Shown one piece after another: positions 326-38,247 of a DNA stretch of 38,705 nt (position 1 is the first letter of the stretch; every line of letters starts with the position of its first letter). The DNA is from Thermoanaerobaculia bacterium (GTDB lineage Bacteria > Acidobacteriota > Thermoanaerobaculia > Gp7-AA8): NCBI GenBank assembly GCA_017883215.1, contig JADGOA010000001.1, positions 1-38,705 of the forward strand, given 5' to 3'. A model generated the notes under the pieces. The model was not told where the DNA came from and did not search any database. It saw only the letters and a program-made list of their open reading frames with translations. Both the position numbers and the translations under genes were made by a program.

Positions 326-407
326 GTGGCGAGTCGCGAGTGGCGAGCAGGGGAACGGCCCGACGGGCAACCTACTCGCTACTGGCTACTCGCTACTCGC
401 TATACTC
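326..407 (+). repeat. Heptad-arm hairpin element A (GCGAGTR / TACTSGC family)
   Basis: 5' arm GTGGCGA GTCGCGA GTGGCGA (326-346). Loop around 354-370. 3' arm TACTCGC TACTGGC TACTCGC TACTCGC TATACTC (373-407). Arms pair at 17 of 21 positions by eye. Confidence 0.85.
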
Positions 408-2356: not shown

Positions 2357-2421
2357 GAGCGAGTGGCAAGTAGGGAAACCGGCGTTCTCTCCTACTCGCT
2401 ACTCGCTACTCGCTACTCGCT
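2357..2421 (+). repeat. Heptad-arm hairpin element B (same family as A)
   Basis: 5' arm GAGCGAGTGGCAAGTAGGGA (2357-2376). 3' arm TCTCC followed by TACTCGC x4 (2388-2421). 16 Watson-Crick pairs plus 2 G-U out of 20 in the inner register. Confidence 0.88.
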
Positions 2422-2426
2422 GAAAA

Positions 2427-3023
2427 ATGACAGCTCCTCCCTTAGCGAATCTCATCAACGAGCTCACCAAGCTGCCGGGTGTCGGCGGCAAGTCAGCGTC
2501 ACGTCTGGCGTACTGGATCCTGAAGCGTTCACCTGGAGAGGCGGAAGCGCTTGCTGCTGCCATCCTCGACGTGAAGCAGAAGATCTTCCGCTGCTCGATC
2601 TGCAACAACATGACGGACGTGGAACCGTGCGCGATCTGCACCGATTCGCGCCGCGATCCGACCGTCGTTTGCGTGGTGGAGGAAGCCTTCAACATCGCCA
2701 CGATCGAACAGACGCGCGAGTTCAAGGGGATGTTCCATGTCCTGCTCGGCGCGCTGTCGCCGCTGAAAGGGATCGGACCGCAGGATATCGACGTGGCCGG
2801 GCTCGTGAAGCGCGTCCAGGGGGGCTCGGTGCGCGAGGTGATCATCGCGACCAACCCGAACGTGGAAGGGGAGGCCACTGCGCTGTATATCGCGCAGCAA
2901 CTGCGGCCGATCGGCGTCAAGGCGACACGGCTCGCCTTCGGGCTGCCCGTGGGCGGCGATCTCGAATACGCAGACCAGGTGACGATGGCCAAAGCGCTCG
3001 AGGGTCGAAGAGAGATCGGGTAA
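2427..3023 (+). CDS. recR: Recombination protein RecR
   Basis: [20 protein letters not shown] helix-hairpin-helix, C4 zinc finger [16 protein letters not shown], Toprim region VCVVEE...[17 protein letters not shown]. Confidence 0.96.
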
Positions 3024-3024
3024 T

Positions 3025-3093
3025 GGGCAGTGCGCAGCAGGCAGTGGGCGGTGCGCAGGGGAAGACCGTTCCACTGCGCACTGCCCACTGCCC
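3025..3093 (+). repeat. Heptad-arm hairpin element C (GGGCAGT/GCGCAGY family)
   Basis: 5' arm GGGCAGT GCGCAGC AGGCAGT GGGCGGT GCGCAGG. Loop AAGACCGTT. 3' arm CCACTGC GCACTGC CCACTGC CC. Positions 3039-3061 pair with 3071-3093 at 20 of 23. Confidence 0.88.
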
Positions 3094-3121
3094 GTCGCGC
3101 TAGGTTCCTAAGTGTTTCCTG

Positions 3122-5519: not shown

Positions 5520-6920
5520 ATGAACGAGAACCTCGAAGTCATCATCCTCGCGGCCGGTCTGGGCACGCGAATGAAGTCGGCCACCATCAAGATTCTTCAT
5601 CACGCCGCCGGCCGCCCCATCATCGATTACGTTCTCGACCTCGCGGCAGAAGTGTCCGGCCGCAATCCCATCGTCGTGGTCGGGCATCAACGCGAAGCCG
5701 TTCAGCAGGCCATCGGCGACCGAGCGCGGTTCGCCGTTCAGGAGCAGCAACTCGGAACCGGGCACGCCGTCATGCAGGCGGCGCAGCTCCTGGAGAGCGA
5801 ACACACTCCTGGCGGCACGGTCCTGATCCTCTCCGGCGATGTGCCGCTCACGCGCAGAGAAACGCTGCAGTCGCTCGTCGAGCAGCACCGGCGTGAGGCG
5901 AACGCGCTGACACTGCTGAGCATGAAACTCGATCAGCCGGCCATGTACGGCCGGATCGTGCGCGACGCCGACGGCACCGTGATGCGCATCGTGGAAGCGA
6001 AAGATGCCAGCGACGCGGAGAAGGCCATCCAGGAAGTGAACGCCGGGATCTACGTCTTCGACAGCGCGGACCTGCTGGCGAATCTCCGTCAGCTGTCGAC
6101 CGACAACACTCAAGGCGAGTATTACCTGACCGACCTGATCGGCATGATTCGCAACGCCGGCAAGCGCGTCGGGGCGGTCGTGGCCGCAGATCCGGTGGAA
6201 GCGCTGGGCGTGAATTCGCGAGGCGAGCTGGCGATCGTCGAAGCCGAAATTCAGAAGCGGGTCGTGCAGAAGCTCATGACCGAAGGAGTGACGTTCCGCA
6301 ATCCGACGACCGTGGTCGTCGACTCGACCGTGAGCATCGGCGCGGACTCGGTGGTCTATCCGTTCGTCACGATCGAGGGGACGACGCGCATCGGCGAGCG
6401 TTGCGTCATCGAGCCCGGCGCGCACCTGATCAACGTGACCATCGGCAACGACGTCCACGTGAAGACCGGCACGGTAGCCGAGGAGAGCACGATTGCCGAT
6501 TCGTCGGTGGTCGGGCCGTACGCCCATCTCCGCCCCGGCACGAAGCTCGGCGAGCACGTGAAGGTCGGCAACTTCGTGGAGACCAAGAAGGCCGTGTTCG
6601 GCGCCGGCGCGAAAGCGTCGCACCTCTCGTACATCGGCGACGCTGAGATCGGTGCGGACGTGAACATCGGTGCGGGAACCATCACCTGCAACTACGACGG
6701 CGTCAACAAGCACAAGACGGTGCTCGAGGACGGCGTGTTCATCGGCTCGGATACGCAACTGGTGGCGCCCGTCAGGATCGGCCGCGGCGCCTATGTCGGC
6801 GCGGGATCGACGATCACCATGGACGTGCCGGCGGATGCTCTCGCCCTCTCGCGCGTTCCCCAGAAGATCGTCGAGGGCTGGGCAACGCGCCGCCGTGAAA
6901 AGCTGAAGAAGCCGAAATAG
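5520..6920 (+). CDS. glmU: Bifunctional UDP-N-acetylglucosamine pyrophosphorylase / glucosamine-1-phosphate N-acetyltransferase
   Basis: ILAAGLGTRMKS nucleotidyltransferase motif, LILSGDVPL, YYLTD, then a long left-handed beta-helix of hexapeptide repeats ending CNYDGVNKHKT. Confidence 0.95.
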   Translation: MNENLEVIILAAGLGTRMKSATIKILHHAAGRPIIDYVLDLAAEVSGRNPIVVVGHQREAVQQAIGDRARFAVQEQQLGTGHAVMQAAQLLESEHTPGGTVLILSGDVPLTRRETLQSLVEQHRREANALTLLSMKLDQPAMYGRIVRDADGTVMRIVEAKDASDAEKAIQEVNAGIYVFDSADLLANLRQLSTDNTQGEYYLTDLIGMIRNAGKRVGAVVAADPVEALGVNSRGELAIVEAEIQKRVVQKLMTEGVTFRNPTTVVVDSTVSIGADSVVYPFVTIEGTTRIGERCVIEPGAHLINVTIGNDVHVKTGTVAEESTIADSSVVGPYAHLRPGTKLGEHVKVGNFVETKKAVFGAGAKASHLSYIGDAEIGADVNIGAGTITCNYDGVNKHKTVLEDGVFIGSDTQLVAPVRIGRGAYVGAGSTITMDVPADALALSRVPQKIVEGWATRRREKLKKPK

Positions 6921-8468: not shown

Positions 8469-12458
<3,990 letters not shown>

Positions 12459-15007: not shown

Positions 15008-15841
15008 GTGAACGACATCGAACTGGCGATAGAGGCCGCCCGCCGCGGCGCCGCGATTCTGCTGAAGTACTGGGAGCAGATCGGTAAAGAGGATGCCCAC
15101 ATCAAGGCCCGCAACGATTGGGTTTCCCGCGCCGACAAGGAAAGCGAAGCGGCCATCATCTCCCTCATCAGCGACAACCGCCCCGATGACGTCTTCCTCG
15201 GCGAGGAGAGCGGATTGTCCGCGGCCGCGGGCCCCAATGGCCGGACCTGGATCATCGACCCGCTCGACGGCACTTCGAACTACCTCCAGCACTTTCCGGT
15301 CTGGTCGATCTCCATTGCCCTGCGGCAACGGGACGAGGTGATCGCCGGCCTCGTTTACGAGCCGCTGCGCGACATTTTCTTCAGCGCCGAGCGCGGCGCG
15401 GGGGCGTACCGCGACGGCAAGCGGATGGAGGTCTCGACCCAGCCGGCGGTCGAGGGGGCGTTTCTCGCGACGGGGTTCCCATTTCGTGCGCAACAATTTG
15501 TAGCGACCTACTGTCGCATCTTCGAGGACGTGGTGTCGATCGCCAAAGGCGTGCGCCGCGCTGGATCGGCGGCGCTCGATCTCGCCTATACGGCCGCCGG
15601 CGTTTTCGACGGCTTCTTCGAGATGCATCTCGCACCGTGGGACGTCGCCGCCGGGTCGCTCCTCGTCACCGAAGCGGGAGGGCGAATCAGCGACTTCTCA
15701 GGCGGCCAACGTTGGCTGGAACGCGGGAACATCGTCGGCGCGCCGCCGGGCATTCACGAGGACCTGATCCGGATGATCGGCCGCCACGTGACCGAAGAGC
15801 AGCTGGACCGGCACCAAGCGAAGAAAATTTCTCAGCCGTGA
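15008..15841 (+). CDS. Inositol monophosphatase family protein (SuhB-like)
   Basis: GTG start preceded by GGAGGA. Motifs FLGEESG, WIIDPLDGTSNY and GSAALDLAYTAAG. Confidence 0.9.
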   Translation: MNDIELAIEAARRGAAILLKYWEQIGKEDAHIKARNDWVSRADKESEAAIISLISDNRPDDVFLGEESGLSAAAGPNGRTWIIDPLDGTSNYLQHFPVWSISIALRQRDEVIAGLVYEPLRDIFFSAERGAGAYRDGKRMEVSTQPAVEGAFLATGFPFRAQQFVATYCRIFEDVVSIAKGVRRAGSAALDLAYTAAGVFDGFFEMHLAPWDVAAGSLLVTEAGGRISDFSGGQRWLERGNIVGAPPGIHEDLIRMIGRHVTEEQLDRHQAKKISQP

Positions 15842-16449
15842 TGGGACCGAAGCTGCCACGCGACTTCTACATGCACGAAACCGTGCACGTTGCGCGGGCG
15901 CTGCTCGGCTGCGTCTTGTGGCGGCGCGTTCGCGGCCGCCTTCTCGCCGCCCGGCTGGTCGAGGTCGAGGCATACCTCGGCGCGAACGACATGGCCAGCC
16001 ATGCCCGCCGCGGTCTTCGCTCCGAGCGCAATGAGTCGATGTACCTCGAGGGCGGCCACGCTTACATCTATCTCAGCTACGGGATGCACTGGTGCATGAA
16101 CGTCGTGACGCAGGAAGCGGACATCGCCGAGGCCGTCCTTCTCCGCGCCGGTGAGCCGCTGCAGGGAATCGAGACGATGTGGAAGCAGCGCCCAAAAGCG
16201 AAGCGCGCGCGCGATCTGCTCAGCGGGCCGGGAAAACTGTGCGCGGGCATGTCGATCGACAAGAAACTCGACAGGGTGCCTCTCGACGGCGACCGCCTGT
16301 TCCTCACCGCGCGCGACGTGGTACTTACCGATGAGGACATCGCCATCTCGCCGCGCATCGGCGTCGATGGCGCCCCGGAAGCCGCTCATTGGCCGCTGCG
16401 TTTCTTTATCCGCGGAAACCCGCACGTGTCGGCATACCGAAATGTCTGA
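15841..16449 (+). CDS. mpg: DNA-3-methyladenine glycosylase (Mpg/AAG family)
   Basis: LPRDFY..TVHVARALLGCVL, VEVEAYLGANDMASHA, GHAYIYLSYGMHWCMNVV. ATG 15841 overlaps the upstream stop (TGATG). The longer ORF-track start at 15637 lies inside the previous gene. Confidence 0.9.
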   Translation: MGPKLPRDFYMHETVHVARALLGCVLWRRVRGRLLAARLVEVEAYLGANDMASHARRGLRSERNESMYLEGGHAYIYLSYGMHWCMNVVTQEADIAEAVLLRAGEPLQGIETMWKQRPKAKRARDLLSGPGKLCAGMSIDKKLDRVPLDGDRLFLTARDVVLTDEDIAISPRIGVDGAPEAAHWPLRFFIRGNPHVSAYRNV

Positions 16450-17041
16450 TCACTACCAGACGCTGGCCGCGCGGACAGAGTTCCGCCACAAGATCGAACG
16501 GTCCGAATTCCTCGGCATCGCCATCCCCGTCGCGAGCGAGGAAGAGTTTTTCGACGAGCTGCACCGCATCGAAAAGCAGCATTTCGACGCCACGCACCAC
16601 TGCTGGGCATTCCGGTTGCGCGCTGGCGAGGACGTGCGCGCGCGCAGCTCGGATGCAGGCGAGCCATCCGGAACGGCCGGAAAACCGATCCTCGTCGCCA
16701 TCGAGGCAGCCGGGGTGTCCGACGTCGCCGTCGTGGTCGTGCGCTGGTTCGGCGGGATCAAGCTCGGCACCGGCGGCCTGTCGCGCGCATATCGGGAAAC
16801 GGCGGCTGAGACGCTGCGGCTCGCACAGCGACTCGACCGATACGTCTATACGCGTTTTCGGGTGGTAGTCCCGTTCGATGCGTTCGGGATCGTCTACCGG
16901 CTGGCCTCTCCGCCGGACGTCGTCCTGCAAAAGGAGACCTTCGGTGAAAGGAATGATTTCGAGTTTCTCGTCCGGACCTCGGCTTCTGAGCGTTTCGCGG
17001 CGGCGCTGACGGAGCGGCGGCTTGAATTCGTCATCGAATGA
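16442..17041 (+). CDS. yigZ: YigZ / IMPACT family protein (UPF0029)
   Basis: IERSEFLGIAIPV, HHCWAFRL, DAGEPSGTAGKPIL, VVVVRWFGGIKLGTGGLSRAY. ATG 16442 overlaps the mpg stop by 8 nt. Confidence 0.9.
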   Translation: MSDHYQTLAARTEFRHKIERSEFLGIAIPVASEEEFFDELHRIEKQHFDATHHCWAFRLRAGEDVRARSSDAGEPSGTAGKPILVAIEAAGVSDVAVVVVRWFGGIKLGTGGLSRAYRETAAETLRLAQRLDRYVYTRFRVVVPFDAFGIVYRLASPPDVVLQKETFGERNDFEFLVRTSASERFAAALTERRLEFVIE

Positions 17042-17512: not shown

Positions 17513-18415
17513 ATGAATATGCCGACACGCAACATCTTTTTGATCGCCGCGGTGACGCTGGCCGCCTCGTGCTCACTCGGCGGGCCGACGCACGACGAAA
17601 CGATCAGCCGGACGTTCCCGGCGGCAGGCGTTCACCGTCTGGATCTACGGGAAGTCAACGGAAGCGTTGACATATCGGCTGGTCCAGCCGATTCGATCAC
17701 GCTCGTTGCGCACGTTCATGCCCGCGGCCAGCAGCCGGACGCACGCAAAGACAACAAGGGATATTTCGAAACGAACCTCGACGGCGAAACGCTCGTCGTC
17801 GGTCGCCGGAACGAGCGGCGGCATGTCGGCTTCCCATTCGTTTTCTCGACCCACAACGTCAGCGTCGACTACGACATCCATGTGCCGCCGCAGTTCGATC
17901 TGGAGCTGCGGACCGTGAATGGCCGCATTGCCACGCGGGGGGTGGACGGCGAGACAGATGCAGTGACTGTGAACGGCGCGATTGACGTCGAGAGCAGCGG
18001 CATGCGCGAGCTTCGCGCTCACACCGTCAACGGCGGCTTGAAAGTGCGATTCATGCAGACCTTCCAGGGTGCAAATCTGAAGACGGTGAACGGCGGCGTG
18101 GTGGCCGTCCTGCCGCCGAACGCTTCCTTTGCCTGCGATCTCTCGCAGGTCAACGGCGATTTCGAGGCTTCCTTCCCGCTGAACATCCACTCGCATCCGG
18201 GCAGCCGGCGCGTTTCCGGCGAAGTGAACGGCGGCCGGTACGACCTGCGGATCGTGACCGTGAACGGCGACATCCGCGTGGAAAACGGCGCCGGCACGAT
18301 GGCGGTGCCGCTACCACCGGCGGCGCCGGCAGGATCGACAGCGATGCCGGCCATGCCCGCACCACCGGCGCCGCCCGCGCCACCCGCGCCGCCGCACGGC
18401 TCGTGGGGAACCTAG
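17513..18415 (+). CDS. Lipoprotein with DUF4097-like repeated beta-helix (putative adhesin fold) and Pro-rich C-terminus
   Basis: Lipobox LAASCS. Recurrent VNG(S/A/R/G)(I/V/L) strands (VNGSVDI, VNGRIAT, VNGAIDV, VNGGLKV, VNGGVVA, VNGDFEA, VNGDIRV). C-terminal PAPPAPPAPPAPP tail. Confidence 0.6.
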   Translation: MNMPTRNIFLIAAVTLAASCSLGGPTHDETISRTFPAAGVHRLDLREVNGSVDISAGPADSITLVAHVHARGQQPDARKDNKGYFETNLDGETLVVGRRNERRHVGFPFVFSTHNVSVDYDIHVPPQFDLELRTVNGRIATRGVDGETDAVTVNGAIDVESSGMRELRAHTVNGGLKVRFMQTFQGANLKTVNGGVVAVLPPNASFACDLSQVNGDFEASFPLNIHSHPGSRRVSGEVNGGRYDLRIVTVNGDIRVENGAGTMAVPLPPAAPAGSTAMPAMPAPPAPPAPPAPPHGSWGT

Positions 18416-21187: not shown

Positions 21188-21468
21188 TCGGACTTGCTCC
21201 CGCTCTTCGACTCCGGTTTCGACTCCGGTTTCGATTCGGATTTCGACTCGGGTTTCGATTCCGATTTCGATTCGCTGGAAGTCGATGACTTGCTCGGGTA
21301 GTCGGTCTTATAAAACCCTGACCCTTTGAATTGAATCGCCGGCGCGGAAAAGAGTTTCTTCATGTCCCCGCCGCATTTGGGACAGTGCGCGTACGGCGGA
21401 TCAGAGAACTTCTGAATCACCTCGACCCGCTCACCGCACTGCTGACATTGGTATTCGTACAGAGGCAT
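21184..21468 (-). CDS. FmdB-family zinc-ribbon protein (CxxC_CxxC_SSSS) with low-complexity ESKP tail
   Basis: MPLYEYQCQQCG...HCPKCGG...FKGSGFYKTDY is the canonical FmdB zinc ribbon. The C-terminus is SESKSESKPESKSESKPESKPESKSGSKSE. Confidence 0.9.
   Translation of the reverse strand: MPLYEYQCQQCGERVEVIQKFSDPPYAHCPKCGGDMKKLFSAPAIQFKGSGFYKTDYPSKSSTSSESKSESKPESKSESKPESKPESKSGSKSE
21206..21277 (-). repeat. Six tandem 12-nt units (TTCGAYTCSGRT on the + strand) encoding the ESKS/ESKP tail
   Basis: Units at 21206, 21218, 21230, 21242, 21254 and 21266, read directly from the sequence. Confidence 0.9.
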
Positions 21469-22298: not shown

Positions 22299-22406
22299 GA
22301 AAGCGAGTAGCGCGTCGCGCGTGGCGTGGTCGGGGACGGAGGTCCATGCAGTTCGTTGTCGGCTTTCGTCGGCCTTACTTGCGACTCGCTACTCGCTACT
22401 CGCTTC
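22299..22406. repeat. Heptad-arm hairpin element F (GCGAGTA family) in a divergent intergenic region
   Basis: 5' arm AGCGAGT AGCGCGT CGCGCGT GGCGTGG (22302-22329). 3' arm TGCGACT CGCTACT CGCTACT CGCTTC (22380-22406). 12 contiguous bp at the base (22301-22312 with 22394-22405), then imperfect pairing. Roughly 45-nt loop. Confidence 0.75.
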
Positions 22407-23897: not shown

Positions 23898-23950
23898 GGT
23901 CACGAGGTGAGCTCGTGCCTTTGACGTCAAGACCTCATGACCTCGTGACC
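23898..23950 (+). repeat. Hairpin element G (11-bp stem; 8-nt direct repeat in the 3' arm; palindromic loop core)
   Basis: GGTCACGAGGT (23898-23908) pairs with ACCTCGTGACC (23940-23950). The 3' arm reads ACCTCATG ACCTCGTG. The loop contains the 10-bp palindrome TTGACGTCAA (23921-23930). Confidence 0.7.
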
Positions 23951-24017
23951 GGAAAGCTTTCCCCTGCACGCTGCCCGTCCACCGGCTGGCAGTCTCTTCG
24001 CAAAACGGGCAACTGAA

Positions 24018-26312
24018 ATGCCGCGACGTCTACGGCGCAAATGGCTCGTCCTGGGCGTGACGATCCCCATCGCGATCGGGTCGATCGCGCTGGGCATCTA
24101 CTTCCTCGTTTGGGAGCGGAAGTCGCACGAAGAGACGCGTCAGCACGCAAAGCCCGAGGCTCCGCCGGATCTGCAGAAGCTTCGCAACACATATGCGGCC
24201 GGCCTGGAGGCGGTTCAACGCGGGGACGGCGTCGATGCCGTCAAACAGTTCAGCTCCTTTACCTTTCACGACCGCGCTGTCGAGGAGTACCGGCTCTACT
24301 ACCTCGCCGTGGGCCAGCAGCTGATGCACGACGCCAAGCGGGCGCGCTTGACGCTGGCATTGCTGGAGGCGCGACAGCCGGCGTTCGTCTTCGCCGACGA
24401 CGCCGGTCTGACGTTGGCCGGTCTCTACGGAGGTGTCGCGGACTGGCGCCACACAGCCGGCCAATACGCCGCGGTGGCGTCCCGGACCGACTCGCCCGCA
24501 GTTGCGGCCGCGGCGCGCTGGGGGGAGGTCGAATCACGATTCTTCAGCGGCGACGTCGCGGCATCGATCGCCGCGGCGCGCCAGATCGCCATCAAGAGTC
24601 CGCGATCATCGCAGGCCGCATCGGCACTGGGGCTGCTGCGCGGCATCGACGGCACCGGGCCGGACGGCATGGTGCCGTTCTCGCCTGCCGAGCGCCTGGA
24701 GCGAGCGGTCTCTCTTCTGCGCGATGGTGACCCGCAGTCCGCGTTCGGCGAGCTGAGCGCACTGGAGCCGCTTGCTCCCTCCTCGATTCGCGATGCCGTC
24801 CGACTCAACGAAGGCCTCGCCCTCAACAGCCTCCATCGATACGAGGACTCGAACAAGATTCTCGACATGCTCGCATCCGGCCCGTTCAGGATCGCCATTC
24901 CGGCGATCTACACCGCGTCGAAGAACTACCGAGCCATTGCTGCCTCCATCAATCCGATAGTCATAAAGACCATCGTGCAGCGAAAGCAGGTCGGCAAGCG
25001 GAAGGTGACGGTCGGCAAAGGGGAGAAGCGCCGAACGATCATCCGGCCAAGATTCGCGAACGTGAAGAAGAACGTGCAGCTCGTCGACCTCGCGAAGAAG
25101 GCGAAGAAAGACGAGGCCGACCGCCTGGCGACGGAACGGTTGAAGGACCTGCTGCAGATCGAGACCGTCGCGCCCGAGGTGCGGCTGGAGGTGCTGAAAA
25201 CGCTGATCGGCATCACCGACGCGAAAAATCAGGATGCGTACGAACAGGAGCTGGTCGGCGAAGTGGTGAAGATCGATCCCTACGCGGATCCGGCTCTGCA
25301 GCACTTCTGGGACAAGGCCTGGGCGGCGTATTCCCGCGGTGACCTCAATGGCGCGAAGCCTCTGTTCCGCTTCATCGCCGACACCTACGGCAATCCGAAC
25401 GTAAAGCGGCAGGCGGAATACTGGTACGCCAGAACCATCGAGCGCCTCGGTGCGAAGGAAGAATCGGCCGCGATCTACCGCCGGCTCGCTTCCGCACCGT
25501 ACGAGGACATCTACTCCGTCCACTCCGTCGGCCGCGGCGCGCCCCGCGGCGTGGCCACGACGAATCCGCTGAAGATGAACCGTCCCGACTGGCGGGACAT
25601 CGCCGAACAGACCATGCCGGGCGGCCTGCGGCTGGCTTACGAGCTGACGGCCCTGAACGACATGCGCGACGCGCAGCTGGAGATCCGCAAGAATGCGGGC
25701 TTCGTGAACCGGCACTTCACCAACGCGCTGCTGGCCGATCTGTACAACAGCGCCGGCAACGCCGACCTCACGTATCGAACCATCCGCGCCGCGTTTCCGC
25801 AGCTCGCCACCGTCGAACAGGACGCCGTCCCACCGTACTTCTTGAAAATCTACTACCCGGTTCGGTACGAGGACGCCATCCTGAAAGACTCGCGTCGATT
25901 CGACGTCGACCCCTATCTGGTCATGGCGCTCATTCTTCAGGAGAGCTATTTCAACCCCAAAGCGAAGTCGCGGGTGGGAGCAACCGGCCTGATGCAACTC
26001 ATGCCCGGCACCGGGAAAGAGCTCGGCCAGAAGCTGCACGGCCGCTTCAGCATCACCCGCCTGAACGATCCTGATACGAACATCGAGCTCGGTACGTACC
26101 ACCTGCGGCACATGATTCAGATCTTCGCCGGCCACGTTCCGCTCGCCGTGGCGTCCTACAACGCCGGACAGGGAAACGTTCTGAAGTGGCGGAGGGCGGC
26201 CGCTTCGAAGCCGATGGACGAGTTTCTGGAATCGATTCCGTTCCCTGAAACACGCAACTATGTCAAACGGGTCACGCTTCTCCGCTCGTCATACGCACGC
26301 ATCGCGCAGTAA
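24018..26312 (+). CDS. Soluble lytic murein transglycosylase (Slt70-like) with N-terminal TM/signal anchor and superhelical domain
   Basis: C-terminal SLT domain LILQESYFNPKAKSRVGATGLMQLMPGT with catalytic Glu, and AVASYNAGQGNV. Long helical repeat region upstream. Confidence 0.88.
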   Translation: MPRRLRRKWLVLGVTIPIAIGSIALGIYFLVWERKSHEETRQHAKPEAPPDLQKLRNTYAAGLEAVQRGDGVDAVKQFSSFTFHDRAVEEYRLYYLAVGQQLMHDAKRARLTLALLEARQPAFVFADDAGLTLAGLYGGVADWRHTAGQYAAVASRTDSPAVAAAARWGEVESRFFSGDVAASIAAARQIAIKSPRSSQAASALGLLRGIDGTGPDGMVPFSPAERLERAVSLLRDGDPQSAFGELSALEPLAPSSIRDAVRLNEGLALNSLHRYEDSNKILDMLASGPFRIAIPAIYTASKNYRAIAASINPIVIKTIVQRKQVGKRKVTVGKGEKRRTIIRPRFANVKKNVQLVDLAKKAKKDEADRLATERLKDLLQIETVAPEVRLEVLKTLIGITDAKNQDAYEQELVGEVVKIDPYADPALQHFWDKAWAAYSRGDLNGAKPLFRFIADTYGNPNVKRQAEYWYARTIERLGAKEESAAIYRRLASAPYEDIYSVHSVGRGAPRGVATTNPLKMNRPDWRDIAEQTMPGGLRLAYELTALNDMRDAQLEIRKNAGFVNRHFTNALLADLYNSAGNADLTYRTIRAAFPQLATVEQDAVPPYFLKIYYPVRYEDAILKDSRRFDVDPYLVMALILQESYFNPKAKSRVGATGLMQLMPGTGKELGQKLHGRFSITRLNDPDTNIELGTYHLRHMIQIFAGHVPLAVASYNAGQGNVLKWRRAAASKPMDEFLESIPFPETRNYVKRVTLLRSSYARIAQ

Positions 26313-26314
26313 AT

Positions 26315-26387
26315 GGAAGTGATCGGAAGTGATCAGTCAGAATACGCGGAAGCCACTGATCACCGATCACTGATCACTGATCACTTC
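26315..26387 (+). repeat. Heptad-arm hairpin element H (GATC-rich AGTGATC/ACTGATC family)
   Basis: 5' arm GGAAGTGATCGGAAGTGATCAGTCAG. Loop about AATACGCGGAAGC. 3' arm ACTGATC ACCGATC ACTGATC ACTGATC ACTTC. Stems of 9 and 10 bp with a 3-nt bulge. Six GATC sites. Confidence 0.88.
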
Positions 26388-26388
26388 G

Positions 26389-26799
26389 ATGAACCAACGA
26401 ATCGCCGCTTTCACCGGCTTCTCAGGCTCGGGCAAGACGACGCTGATCGTGGCTTTGATCGGGCGGCTGGTCGCCGATGGCCGCACAGTGGCGGCAATCA
26501 AGCACACGCATCATCCTCTGAACGAGGAGAACCGCGGCGACACCGCGAGGTTCCGGGCCGCCGGCGCCGAGCCCGTGATTCTGGCCGGCGATGGTGGTGG
26601 CGTGGTCTTCACGAGCGGCGGCACGAACCGCATCACCTACGGCTCGCCGGTGGACCTGCTACGGCATCTGGACACGGAGGTGGTTCTCGTGGAGGGCTTC
26701 AAATCATTCAGCGGCTGGCCGAACGTCGAGATCACAAGCGAGCGGCGACCGAGCGTCGAAGAGGTTCTGGCGATTCTCGATAGAATCTGGACCTCATGA
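26389..26799 (+). CDS. mobB: Molybdopterin-guanine dinucleotide biosynthesis adapter protein MobB
   Basis: IAAFTGFSGSGKTTLI P-loop, AAIKHTHH, VLVEGFK. Confidence 0.85.
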   Translation: MNQRIAAFTGFSGSGKTTLIVALIGRLVADGRTVAAIKHTHHPLNEENRGDTARFRAAGAEPVILAGDGGGVVFTSGGTNRITYGSPVDLLRHLDTEVVLVEGFKSFSGWPNVEITSERRPSVEEVLAILDRIWTS

Positions 26800-31935: not shown

Positions 31936-32019
31936 GTAGGGACGCGCAGCAGCGCGTCCGCAACTCTCGTCGGCCCTCCCGCCCACCGGAGCTGCGGGCG
32001 CGCTGCTGCGCGCCCCTAC
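31936..32019 (+). repeat. Twin-hairpin element J (two mutually complementary 8-bp/tetraloop hairpins 36 nt apart)
   Basis: GTAG-GGACGCGC-AGCA-GCGCGTCC (31936-31959) and GGGCGCGC-TGCT-GCGCGCCC-CTAC (31996-32019). The arms are reverse complements except for one compensated base pair. Confidence 0.85.
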
Positions 32020-32138
32020 ATTCGCATTGCGGGGGATTCCTCGCCGCGCTCCACCCCTCCGGGGTTCCGCCAGCTCGGAATGACAGCGTCGGCCAGCTGT
32101 CGGAGTAATCGGCCCATCCGCTGCGTTTTGGTTTCGTC

Positions 32139-38092: not shown

Positions 38093-38150
38093 GGCCTAAC
38101 TCCGTCATCCTGAGAGGCTGTGCAGAAATCGGATAGAAGTGAACAGCCGA

Positions 38151-38223
38151 TGTGGCACAGACACTCCTGTCTGTGCTTCTGCAGCGCATTCCGCCCGGCA
38201 CAGACAAGAGTGTCTGTGCCACA
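38151..38223. repeat. Twin-hairpin element I
   Basis: TGTG-GCACAGACA-CTCC-TGTCTGTGC (38151-38176) and G-GCACAGACA-AGAG-TGTCTGTGC-CACA (38197-38223). 26-nt inverted repeat with 1 mismatch. Confidence 0.85.
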
Positions 38224-38247
38224 CGGGCTTCTCCGTTCTGGAAAGGC

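Follow-up and report, generated by a model that had tools for sequence, protein, structure and literature searches.

Intergenic simple sequence repeats (SSRs) built from heptamers have been described in Xanthomonas (unit GGGAATC) and in Nostoc (GGGGAYT) by Rehm et al. 2015 (PMC4692102). In Xanthomonas, 70-75 convergent array pairs per genome are able to form stem-loops, and the SSRs of both genera lie near the upstream open reading frame (ORF), have neither a strand bias nor a replication bias, seldom occur between divergent genes and occupy the same sites in related strains with extensive variation in length and sequence, their function being unknown (PMC4692102). Another kind of heptad array, the TAACTGA direct repeats of marine Beggiatoaceae, cyanobacteria and Bacteroidetes, ends just before start codons that lack a Shine-Dalgarno (SD) sequence; a translational role via S1, Csp or CsrA was proposed for these repeats, and one inverted case was found in 170 sets (MacGregor 2015, PMC4679880). 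In addition, as far as their survey is described in PMC4679880 and PMC4692102, Mrazek et al. 2007 reported an excess of 7-nt SSRs and proposed polymerase slippage as the source. In this study we analysed element H, a hairpin of tandem heptads located between the slt and mobB genes in a 38,705-nt stretch of a Thermoanaerobaculia genome (Acidobacteriota). This whole stretch is referred to below as the window, and the loci with which it was compared carry L-numbers (L001, L250 etc.).

Judged from its sequence, element H is a palindromic heptanucleotide microsatellite, i.e., a pair of inverted tandem arrays with AGTGATC units in the 5' arm and the complementary GATCACT in the 3' arm. It shares its architecture with the Xanthomonas and Nostoc SSRs, the purine-rich arm coming first, and the class to which it belongs behaves in the same way at the population level. 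However, the AGTGATC/GATCACT unit has no G-tracts, and because of this H cannot form a G-quadruplex or an i-motif. Moreover, the host of H is an Acidobacteriota metagenome-assembled genome (MAG) that uses several heptads, whereas one unit dominates in Xanthomonas and in Nostoc. H is a further example of a functionally unexplained type of heptameric SSR whose architecture has already been described. The explanation that we favour for the whole locus is that of a heptad microsatellite hairpin which was probably made by slippage and is tolerated at this site, without having been recruited as a regulator; in the identity and the origin of H we have good confidence. The features of the junction are the following.

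26310..26312 (+): TAA stop codon of slt, closing ORF 24018-26312 (lytic transglycosylase)
26313..26315 (+): ATG adjoining the slt stop; start of a frame-0 ORF of 156 aa that crosses the hairpin and is judged spurious
26316..26337 (+): purine-rich 5' arm of H; GAAGTGATC, GGA bulge and AGTGATCAGT, i.e., two AGTGATC heptads
26338..26353 (+): central loop of H, CAGAATACGCGGAAGC; unpaired or weakly paired in the minimum free energy (MFE) fold
26354..26386 (+): pyrimidine-rich 3' arm of H; CACTGAT x4.6, the second unit being CACCGAT
26389..26391 (+): ATG start codon of mobB, one base past the stem and without an SD sequence; mobB ORF 26389-26799

The slt ORF encodes 764 aa with a Pfam SLT domain (E = 9.6e-32), and its stop codon is TAG in strains L003 and L248. 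The mobB ORF encodes 136 aa with a Pfam MobB domain (E = 1.7e-21). Its start is backed by the orthologues, which are likewise 136 aa long, have the N-terminus M-x-x-R-[VI]-A-A-F in common and begin at equivalent positions; an exact-match look-up of the window MobB protein gave no match. Written out, the junction reads TAA (26310-12) ATG GAAGTGATC GGA AGTGATCAGT CAGAATACGCGGAAGC CACTGAT CACCGAT CACTGAT CACTGAT CACTTC G ATG (26389). Tandem Repeats Finder (TRF) detected CACTGAT x4.6 at 26354-26385 with 92% matches, whereas the 5' arm was reported as a 10-nt unit, GGAAGTGATC, x2 at 26315-26334; it reads as a 10-mer repeat because the GGA bulge separates its two heptads. H thus combines a head-to-tail tandem of 7-nt units in at least three copies with two inverted arrays able to form a stem-loop. 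An earlier note on this stretch had described a hairpin reaching from the slt stop to a mobB start without an SD sequence, and this description was borne out: the stop at 26310-12 and the ATG at 26389 hold, the stem-loop occupies 26316-26387 (z = -4.2), the make-up of AGTGATC heptads on the 5' side and a CACTGAT-type array on the 3' side is correct, and direct reading of the 13 nt preceding the mobB ATG found no GGAGG-like sequence.

The RNA MFE of 26310-26391 was -30.4 kcal/mol, and none of the 200 shuffles against which the fold energy of the element H RNA was scored was as stable. In the predicted fold 26316-26324 and 26328-26337 pair with 26369-26387, which is the only part of the 3' side paired with the 5' arm, and two 3' heptads stay unpaired in the apical region. 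As DNA, the two strands of H gave z = -4.0 and -3.6. Neither a terminator nor a promoter was predicted at H, the tail after the stem being CGATGAACC, i.e., there is no GC-rich stem followed by a U-run.

The 3' array also invites comparison with the TAACTGA repeats. The register TCACTGA of H is one position from TAACTGA, and TAACTGA itself occurs as a variant in related arrays elsewhere. As in the Beggiatoaceae sets, the units (2-6 copies) run in the sense orientation and drift within NNACTGA, and the array of H ends at 26386, followed by the SD-less ATG at 26389. Unlike the TAACTGA direct repeats, H has a complementary arm and folds, and the strong sense-strand bias of the Beggiatoa repeats is absent from the class surveyed below.

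Other readings of the junction were tried and rejected. The 156-aa ORF 26313-26783 that starts at ATG 26313 lies in a different frame from mobB, to which the Pfam match belongs, and its third positions coincide with the second positions of mobB. It is open only since the variant heptad CACCGAT abolishes the single frame-0 TGA, and the same frame ends after 8 codons in L250 and after 21 codons in L248. Reinitiation at ATG 26313 could still affect the coupling of mobB. Mimicry of an SD/anti-SD interaction by GGAAGTGATC, which differs by a single mismatch from GGAGGTGATC (complementary to the 3' tail usual in 16S rRNA), was judged not distinctive, because the window contains 11 matches to GGAGGTGATC with at most one mismatch (3.6 expected), mostly within genes, and because an SD sequence is absent in 3 of the 4 distant slt-mobB orthologues. 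The L002 orthologue has AAGGAGG where the window has GGAAGTGATC.

The behaviour of H was examined in close relatives, and JGI 3300086718 Ga0683564_0000249 and JGI 3300046703 Ga0494758_0000132 are among the close relatives of the window. The 90%-identity cluster of the window Slt led to the loci L248, L249 and L250, which compare with the window as follows.

Window H: spacer 76 nt; RNA fold -30.4 kcal/mol, z = -4.2
L250: 98.2% DNA identity over 22 kb; spacer 92 nt; -51.8 kcal/mol, z = -9.8
L248 (L249 has an identical spacer): 90.5% DNA identity; spacer 84 nt; -37.8 kcal/mol, z = -3.9

In L250, H contains an additional 14 nt, i.e., two heptads (AGTGATCAGTGATT), inserted in the 5' arm at 26328, so that this arm has four AGTGATC-type units vs two in the window; there is also a 2-nt AT insertion in the 3' arm, and four substitutions. 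The 22.2-kb alignment of the window and L250 contained 321 substitutions (1.44%) and 11 indels, and three of these indels fell within heptad hairpins: the 14-nt and 2-nt insertions in H and a 21-nt deletion in another hairpin of the window, element D, which lacks exactly three heptads of its 5' arm in L250. The four substitutions in the 76 nt of H correspond to 5.3%, vs the 1.44% background. L248 and L249 are both 90.5% identical to the window and carry GGCGGCC heptads, which replace part of the 5' arm, and the 3' units of the L248 version have diverged. The loop sequence AGTCAGAAT is common to the window, L250 and L248, while the remainder of the loop varies. In each of these three versions, the only independent ones of H, a few bases at most separate the base of the stem from the slt stop and from the mobB start. 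A further strain, L003 (99.4% identical, a Logan contig), ends inside the 3' array, which is typical of an assembly break at a repeat, and is uninformative for variation. The aligned versions show that H changes by gain and loss of whole heptads and by substitution of units, with the hairpin kept in every version examined. In its pattern of change H behaves as a microsatellite, neither as a conserved regulatory site nor as a transposed unit.

In-frame coding tandem repeats of the window likewise vary by whole units between near-identical strains (at 18374, 21263, 22739 and 23423); among the examples are two 9-nt units, CCCGCGCCA and CAACCTGTC, the latter absent from L003 too, and a 12-nt unit of the array at 21206-21274. 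Since coding tandem repeats too vary by whole units, repeat-mediated indels are common in this lineage.

More distant relatives (69-73% Slt identity) allowed us to place the origin of the element. By its Slt homologues the window falls in Acidobacteriota, near MAGs that are named Thermoanaerobaculia. The relatives have retained the order of slt, mobB, two HAD genes and the aminotransferase, serA and aldo-keto reductase genes. Between slt and mobB the spacer measures 9 nt in L001, L244 and L246 (AACAnCGGn) and 20 nt, with AAGGAGG, in L002, and no hairpin was present in this spacer in any of these four loci. Heptad arrays were also absent from L001, L002, L246 and L247 over the 13-22 kb available for each. 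Comparison of these loci shows that H was gained in the ancestor of the species group, within a slt-mobB spacer that is 9 nt long in most relatives. Two heptad hairpins of L244 (GCA_041643075.1, 69% identity), at 6755-6817 and 9671-9735, sit at junctions where the window has none or a different hairpin, which indicates that permissive spacers have been colonised independently and recurrently. Among the heptad hairpins of L244, one has the units GCTCTTG/CAAGAGC and another has GGGATGA x2 facing TCATCCC x5.7, and the latter hairpin begins directly after a stop codon, like H.

H is accompanied in the window by five further sites, elements A-E, giving at least six heptad hairpins in intergenic spacers. 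All share one design, in which a loop separates a purine-rich 5' arm, made of two or three 7-nt units, from a pyrimidine-rich 3' arm that has a larger number of them.

329..402 (+): element A, between the signal recognition particle (SRP) RNA and dnaX; 3' arm CTACTCG x4.4
2358..2421 (+): element B, from the ybaB stop (2353-2355) to the recR ATG (2427); 3' arm CTACTCG x4.3
3017..3100 (+): element C, 3' of recR; GGGCAGT-type units facing CCACTGC x3.3
22301..22405 (+): element D, intergenic; CGAGTAG-type units facing CTACTCG
23900..23950 (+): element E, upstream of slt; hairpin of 7-8 nt units (GACCTCN)

The unit thus differs by site, with CTACTCG at three loci, CCACTGC at one, GACCTCN at one and CACTGAT at H. 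No second AGTGATC-type hairpin was found elsewhere in the 38.7-kb window, where ACTGATCACTGATC matched solely at H. Eight arrays in the window had a period of 7, vs one each at periods 5, 6, 8 and 9, i.e., period 7 dominates the short periods other than multiples of 3. The parallel in geometry between H and B that the earlier note had drawn stands, as the stem of B (2358-2421) lies between the ybaB stop and the recR ATG. Its statement that the two belong to entirely different sequence families applies to the unit; yet they share the design and an ACT core. The note had also named the absence of further AGTGATC hairpins as one of three conditions that together would make H an isolated curiosity. 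Such copies are indeed missing from the window, yet H is not isolated, given at least six heptad hairpins in the window and arrays and hairpins of the same heptad at 120 or more loci elsewhere.

At the very start of the window, a TTTCTGG x2.6 array (1-18) runs off the end of the sequence on one side and on the other ends exactly at the first base of tRNA-Ser(GGA) (19-108); this array probably represents the 3' arm of a further heptad element, located in a tRNA leader.

The class was then sought outside the lineage. An exact scan for GATCACT x3 in contigs representing one genome per species found at least 120 loci, vs about one match that we estimate to be expected by chance (4^20 possible 20-mers, 1.2e12 positions scanned). 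The matches listed include Acidobacteriota, Verrucomicrobiota, Chloroflexota, Bacteroidota, Desulfobacterota, Planctomycetota, Ruminococcus, Microcystis, Streptomyces and others. Likewise, an exact scan of metagenome contigs for CTACTCG x3 found at least 120 loci, with 37-73% G+C among the matches listed. The arrays drift among neighbouring units (TCACTGA, TTACTGA, CCACTGA and TAACTGA, or CTACTCG and CTATTCG), many of them carry a complementary upstream arm, and some reach from stop to start like H, e.g., L129. Our literature searches did not find heptad hairpins described for either Acidobacteriota or Verrucomicrobiota.

A census of 248 sequences (the window and the comparison loci, 1.65 Mb in total) yielded 595 period-7 arrays with 196 distinct units, and 282 of the 595 had a complementary partner within 120 nt. 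Among the arrays of the comparison loci that had not been selected by the query, 220 had period 7, vs 66, 85, 23 and 26 at periods 5, 6, 8 and 9. This spectrum agrees with the 7-nt SSR excess of Mrazek et al. and with the cyanobacterial STRR heptamers, as far as the available accounts of these surveys go; those accounts treat the arrays as direct repeats, and hairpin pairing and polarity do not figure in them. When each hairpin was counted once and at least three 7-mers had to be shared between the arms, the purine-rich arm was 5' in 111 hairpins and 3' in 16, and H has the same polarity; for the hairpins not selected by the query the numbers were 34 vs 11 (p = 8e-4). Gene context in the census relied on crude gene calls (ORF length and G+C content at third codon positions, GC3, in loci with at least 55% G+C only). 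On this basis 45 elements lay in spacers between convergent genes vs 17 between divergent genes, and elements were commoner downstream than upstream of genes. The comparisons show that H belongs both to a population in the intergenic spacers of its genome and to a class present in many phyla.

Some lineages display additional features beside such arrays. At eight loci of Verrucomicrobiota MAGs (L007, L035, L040, L091, L111, L117, L118 and L119) a conserved tail, GATCACT(C/T)GGCACTT, comes after the GATCACT array, and this tail lies 15-27 nt before an ATG where the ORF start could be called (L007, L035, L040, L091 and L118). This suggests a lineage-specific 5'-leader element built on the GATCACT heptad. 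One Ruminococcus bromii assembly has GATCACT arrays on five contigs (L014, L017, L023, L025 and L060). In L017, L023 and L025 a motif of about 40 nt (..ATGTATGCAC(T/C)AGC..GCG(T/C)CCTGATCACT) precedes the array, and L014 shows only its GCGTCCTGATCACT end; the arrays with this motif look like a dispersed repeat with a heptad tail.

Extragenic palindromes of the REP/BIME/REPIN type are generally described as occupying short spacers, preferring the 3' ends of genes and having the capacity to stabilise operon transcripts or to punctuate them. The copies that make up a REP family follow a conserved consensus of 20-40 nt with a GTAG or CGTC head and are mobilised by RAYT transposases. If H were a mobile palindrome of the REP, REPIN or MITE type, inserted as a unit by a transposase such as RAYT and belonging to a dispersed family, the abrupt gain of about 67 nt in a 9-nt spacer would be accounted for, and so would the occurrence of CTACTCG-type elements at three loci of the window and the REP-like preference for gene 3' ends and convergent spacers. 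A loop octamer points in the same direction: GCAGGGGA is shared by the loops of A and C and by another hairpin, with 4 copies in the window vs 1.25 expected. However, H consists of tandem heptads and has a sequence without a second H-type copy in the window, the unit varies by site (196 among the 595 arrays), and strains differ by whole-unit indels in the arms and not by presence or absence. Moreover, there are no terminal inverted repeats beyond the arms and no clear target-site duplication, and the window contains neither a RAYT gene nor any other transposase gene. We therefore regard this origin as highly improbable.

The copies of GCAGGGGA are at 347, 3055 and 28159 on the (+) strand and at 23960 on the (-) strand, and 3 of 100 shuffles also reached four. 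Every copy lies in or beside an intergenic hairpin, namely in the loops of A and C, in the hairpin between the HAD and aminotransferase genes, and beside E. Related loops (GGGAAAGACCG) occur in L244, and AGGGA or AGGGG starts are common in the loops of metagenomic CTACTCG hairpins, which is suggestive of a common loop motif.

The earlier note had laid its emphasis on the GATC content of H, and its counts were accurate: six GATC sites (26321, 26331, 26358, 26365, 26372 and 26379) lie within 65 nt, forming the densest cluster of the window (the next-best has five), and H holds four of the 22 TGATCA sites of the window. On a reading of this kind, H could be a target cluster for a Dam-like methyltransferase, a SeqA- or MutH-like reader or a GATC restriction system, and direct reading of the L248 and L250 versions showed that these retain 5-6 GATC sites. 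The pattern of conservation argues otherwise. Over 358 units flanking the seeded GATCACT match, conservation per position was G 0.89, A 0.77, T 0.71, C 0.58, A 0.94, C 0.94 and T 0.78, i.e., conservation is lowest at T3 and C4 of GATC, the middle of which drifts, while the A-C-T-G core persists. In CTACTCG arrays ACT is likewise best kept (T5 at 0.93), and H and B both keep the ACT core. Because T3 and C4 are the least and ACTG the most conserved, the density of GATC is a by-product of the unit TGATCAC. In addition, the sibling hairpins of the same design in the window carry no GATC, and GATC is over-represented in the window (409 vs 317 +/- 14 expected) and thus not avoided. No methyltransferase, restriction or transposase gene was found in the 38.7-kb window, which encodes housekeeping functions only. 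To our knowledge, Dam/MutH/SeqA systems typify part of the Gammaproteobacteria and are not characteristic of Acidobacteriota. On the evidence of the repeat itself the GATC cluster is incidental, and nothing at the locus ties H to DNA methylation; a role as a GATC target is extremely improbable, and the emphasis placed on it was not upheld.

Another possibility is that H presents binding sites to a protein of which each monomer occupies 7 nt (a cold-shock-domain or S1-like protein on RNA, or a binder of single-stranded DNA, as was proposed for the TAACTGA repeats); the unpaired 3' heptads would be its landing pad, from which the hairpin is opened. Consistent with this, the A-C-T(-G) core is conserved at 0.94, 0.94, 0.78 and 0.89 across many phyla while the other positions drift, the 7-nt period equals a footprint discussed in PMC4679880, and two heptads of H are unpaired. 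A strand-specific RNA ligand, however, is at odds with the census, in which pyrimidine-rich single arrays showed no sense bias relative to transcription (31 sense vs 32 antisense). Furthermore, many unrelated heptads build arrays of the same design, and no candidate protein was identified. We find this explanation very unlikely.

Returning to the explanation that we favour, H would owe both its origin and its persistence to events in the DNA, namely replication slippage or a misaligned pairing in the repeat arms. Since tandem units allow such arms to pair in more than one register, units could readily be gained and lost, and maintenance at the DNA level fits because the class is indifferent to the direction of transcription. 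On the slt-mobB transcript, a stem of -30 to -52 kcal/mol would form, its base setting the slt stop beside the SD-less mobB start and burying the start region. A ribosome terminating at 26310-12 would open approximately the first dozen pairs and free the AUG. The translation of mobB would thus hinge on ribosomes finishing slt, i.e., the two genes would be translationally coupled. Such coupling would persist across H as it presumably does across the 9-nt spacer of the relatives, and H would be tolerated because the coupling survives, with no recruitment as a dedicated regulator. We put forward this consequence of the predicted hairpin for mobB tentatively and consider it doubtful. Inhibitory intercistronic hairpins mediate translational coupling in the coat-replicase region of phage MS2 and in ribosomal-protein operons. 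H may resemble these cases in geometry only, in that a stop codon lies beside an SD-less start; its stem varies by 20 kcal/mol between strains, and the relatives manage with a 9-nt spacer.

Several observations weigh against the favoured explanation. We infer slippage from the patterns of indels alone, and the translational coupling would follow from the predicted geometry; ATG 26313 could steer reinitiating ribosomes into the wrong frame. The persistence of the hairpin over about 10% divergence and the ACT(G) core exceed what is predicted by a purely neutral process. Finally, in all six window elements the longer arm is 3' on the coding strand, i.e., next to the downstream start, and this local strand bias, which is absent in the wider class, could reflect selection at the RNA level in the lineage.

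As an alternative, H might have been selected as a cis-regulatory RNA that controls mobB or the downstream HAD and serine-pathway genes post-transcriptionally, whether as a translational operator, as a determinant of processing or stability, or as an attenuator. This would be in line with a stem base that adjoins the stop and the start in all three versions at an SD-less gene, with the survival of the hairpin to a 90.5%-identical species despite the turnover of its arms, with the placement of the longer pyrimidine-rich arm beside the downstream start on the sense strand in all window elements, and with the TAACTGA repeats of Beggiatoaceae, which occupy an equivalent position and for which a translational role was proposed (PMC4679880). 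In the wider class, however, not only the sense-strand bias was missing: the longer arm was 3' relative to transcription in 30 hairpins and 5' in 31, and among 43 hairpins between co-directional genes the sense RNA was more stable in 21 and less stable in 22 (Wilcoxon p = 0.51), so that strand-specific RNA selection via G-U pairs was rejected. In the window, elements A and D fold better on the sense strand, whereas B, E and H do not. A range of -30 to -52 kcal/mol between 98%-identical strains is hard to square with a tuned regulator, and because of this 20 kcal/mol spread the strength of the stem does not seem to be finely selected. Moreover, the relatives have mobB behind a 9-nt spacer without such an element, and no Rfam covariance model matched H at its gathering score (the best at E <= 10 reached 16 and 14 bits vs cut-offs of 48 and 40). 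Thus, we consider a selected regulatory RNA unlikely.

Other repeats and differences were noted in the neighbourhood. Another palindromic family, GTCATTCCGAGC...GCTCGGAATGAC (with the variant GTCATCCTGAGC), fills intergenic spacers of related Thermoanaerobaculia contigs (L247 19757-19874 and 20862-20964; L002 16752-17022), a half-site lies at about 32075-32110 of the window, and a similar motif occurs in the unrelated Ruminococcus locus L014. Two long nested intergenic palindromes that are not built of heptads, at 31936-32019 and 38135-38239, have 39-nt arms at -70 kcal/mol and 42-nt arms at -64 kcal/mol, and L250 has an extra 68-nt hairpin-containing insertion at window position 32073, adjoining the 31936-32019 palindrome. 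The relatives L248 (1953-3153) and L250 (1847-3047) carry a gene for a 202-aa 3-methyladenine DNA glycosylase (Pur_DNA_glyco) between the inositol monophosphatase and Impact_N genes. The counterpart in the window (15841-17041) consists of a 309-nt gap followed by a 296-aa ORF with the Impact domain from residue 117, and the difference may be a frameshift, a fusion or a gene-calling artefact.

It is also conceivable, though quite unlikely, that the class is coherent across phyla, with an A-C-T(-G) core, a purine-5'/pyrimidine-3' polarity and a preference for gene ends that would be the marks of an unidentified sequence-specific process, and that this lineage has co-opted stop-to-start bridges. 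The process may rest on a conserved activity, either single-strand binding or nicking, or else on a polymerase whose footprint fixes the period at 7 nt. The co-opted bridges would replace SD-dependent initiation at mobB, recR and dnaX.

For this locus, the analysis removes a tempting methylation story that lacks support, shows that the length of the spacer at such junctions is variable between strains, and accounts for assembly breaks by the heptad array, inside which one Logan contig ends. It has been known since 2007 that bacteria contain 7-nt microsatellites in excess, neither a cause nor a function having been agreed on, and the three versions of H, dated by 98% and 90% identity, offer a clean natural example of turnover by whole units with the hairpin kept. 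Rules that may apply to the whole class are hinted at by the ACT core, the purine-to-pyrimidine polarity and the avoidance of divergent promoters. If true, the bridging from stop to start would represent a novel means by which operons preserve translational coupling when spacers are long.

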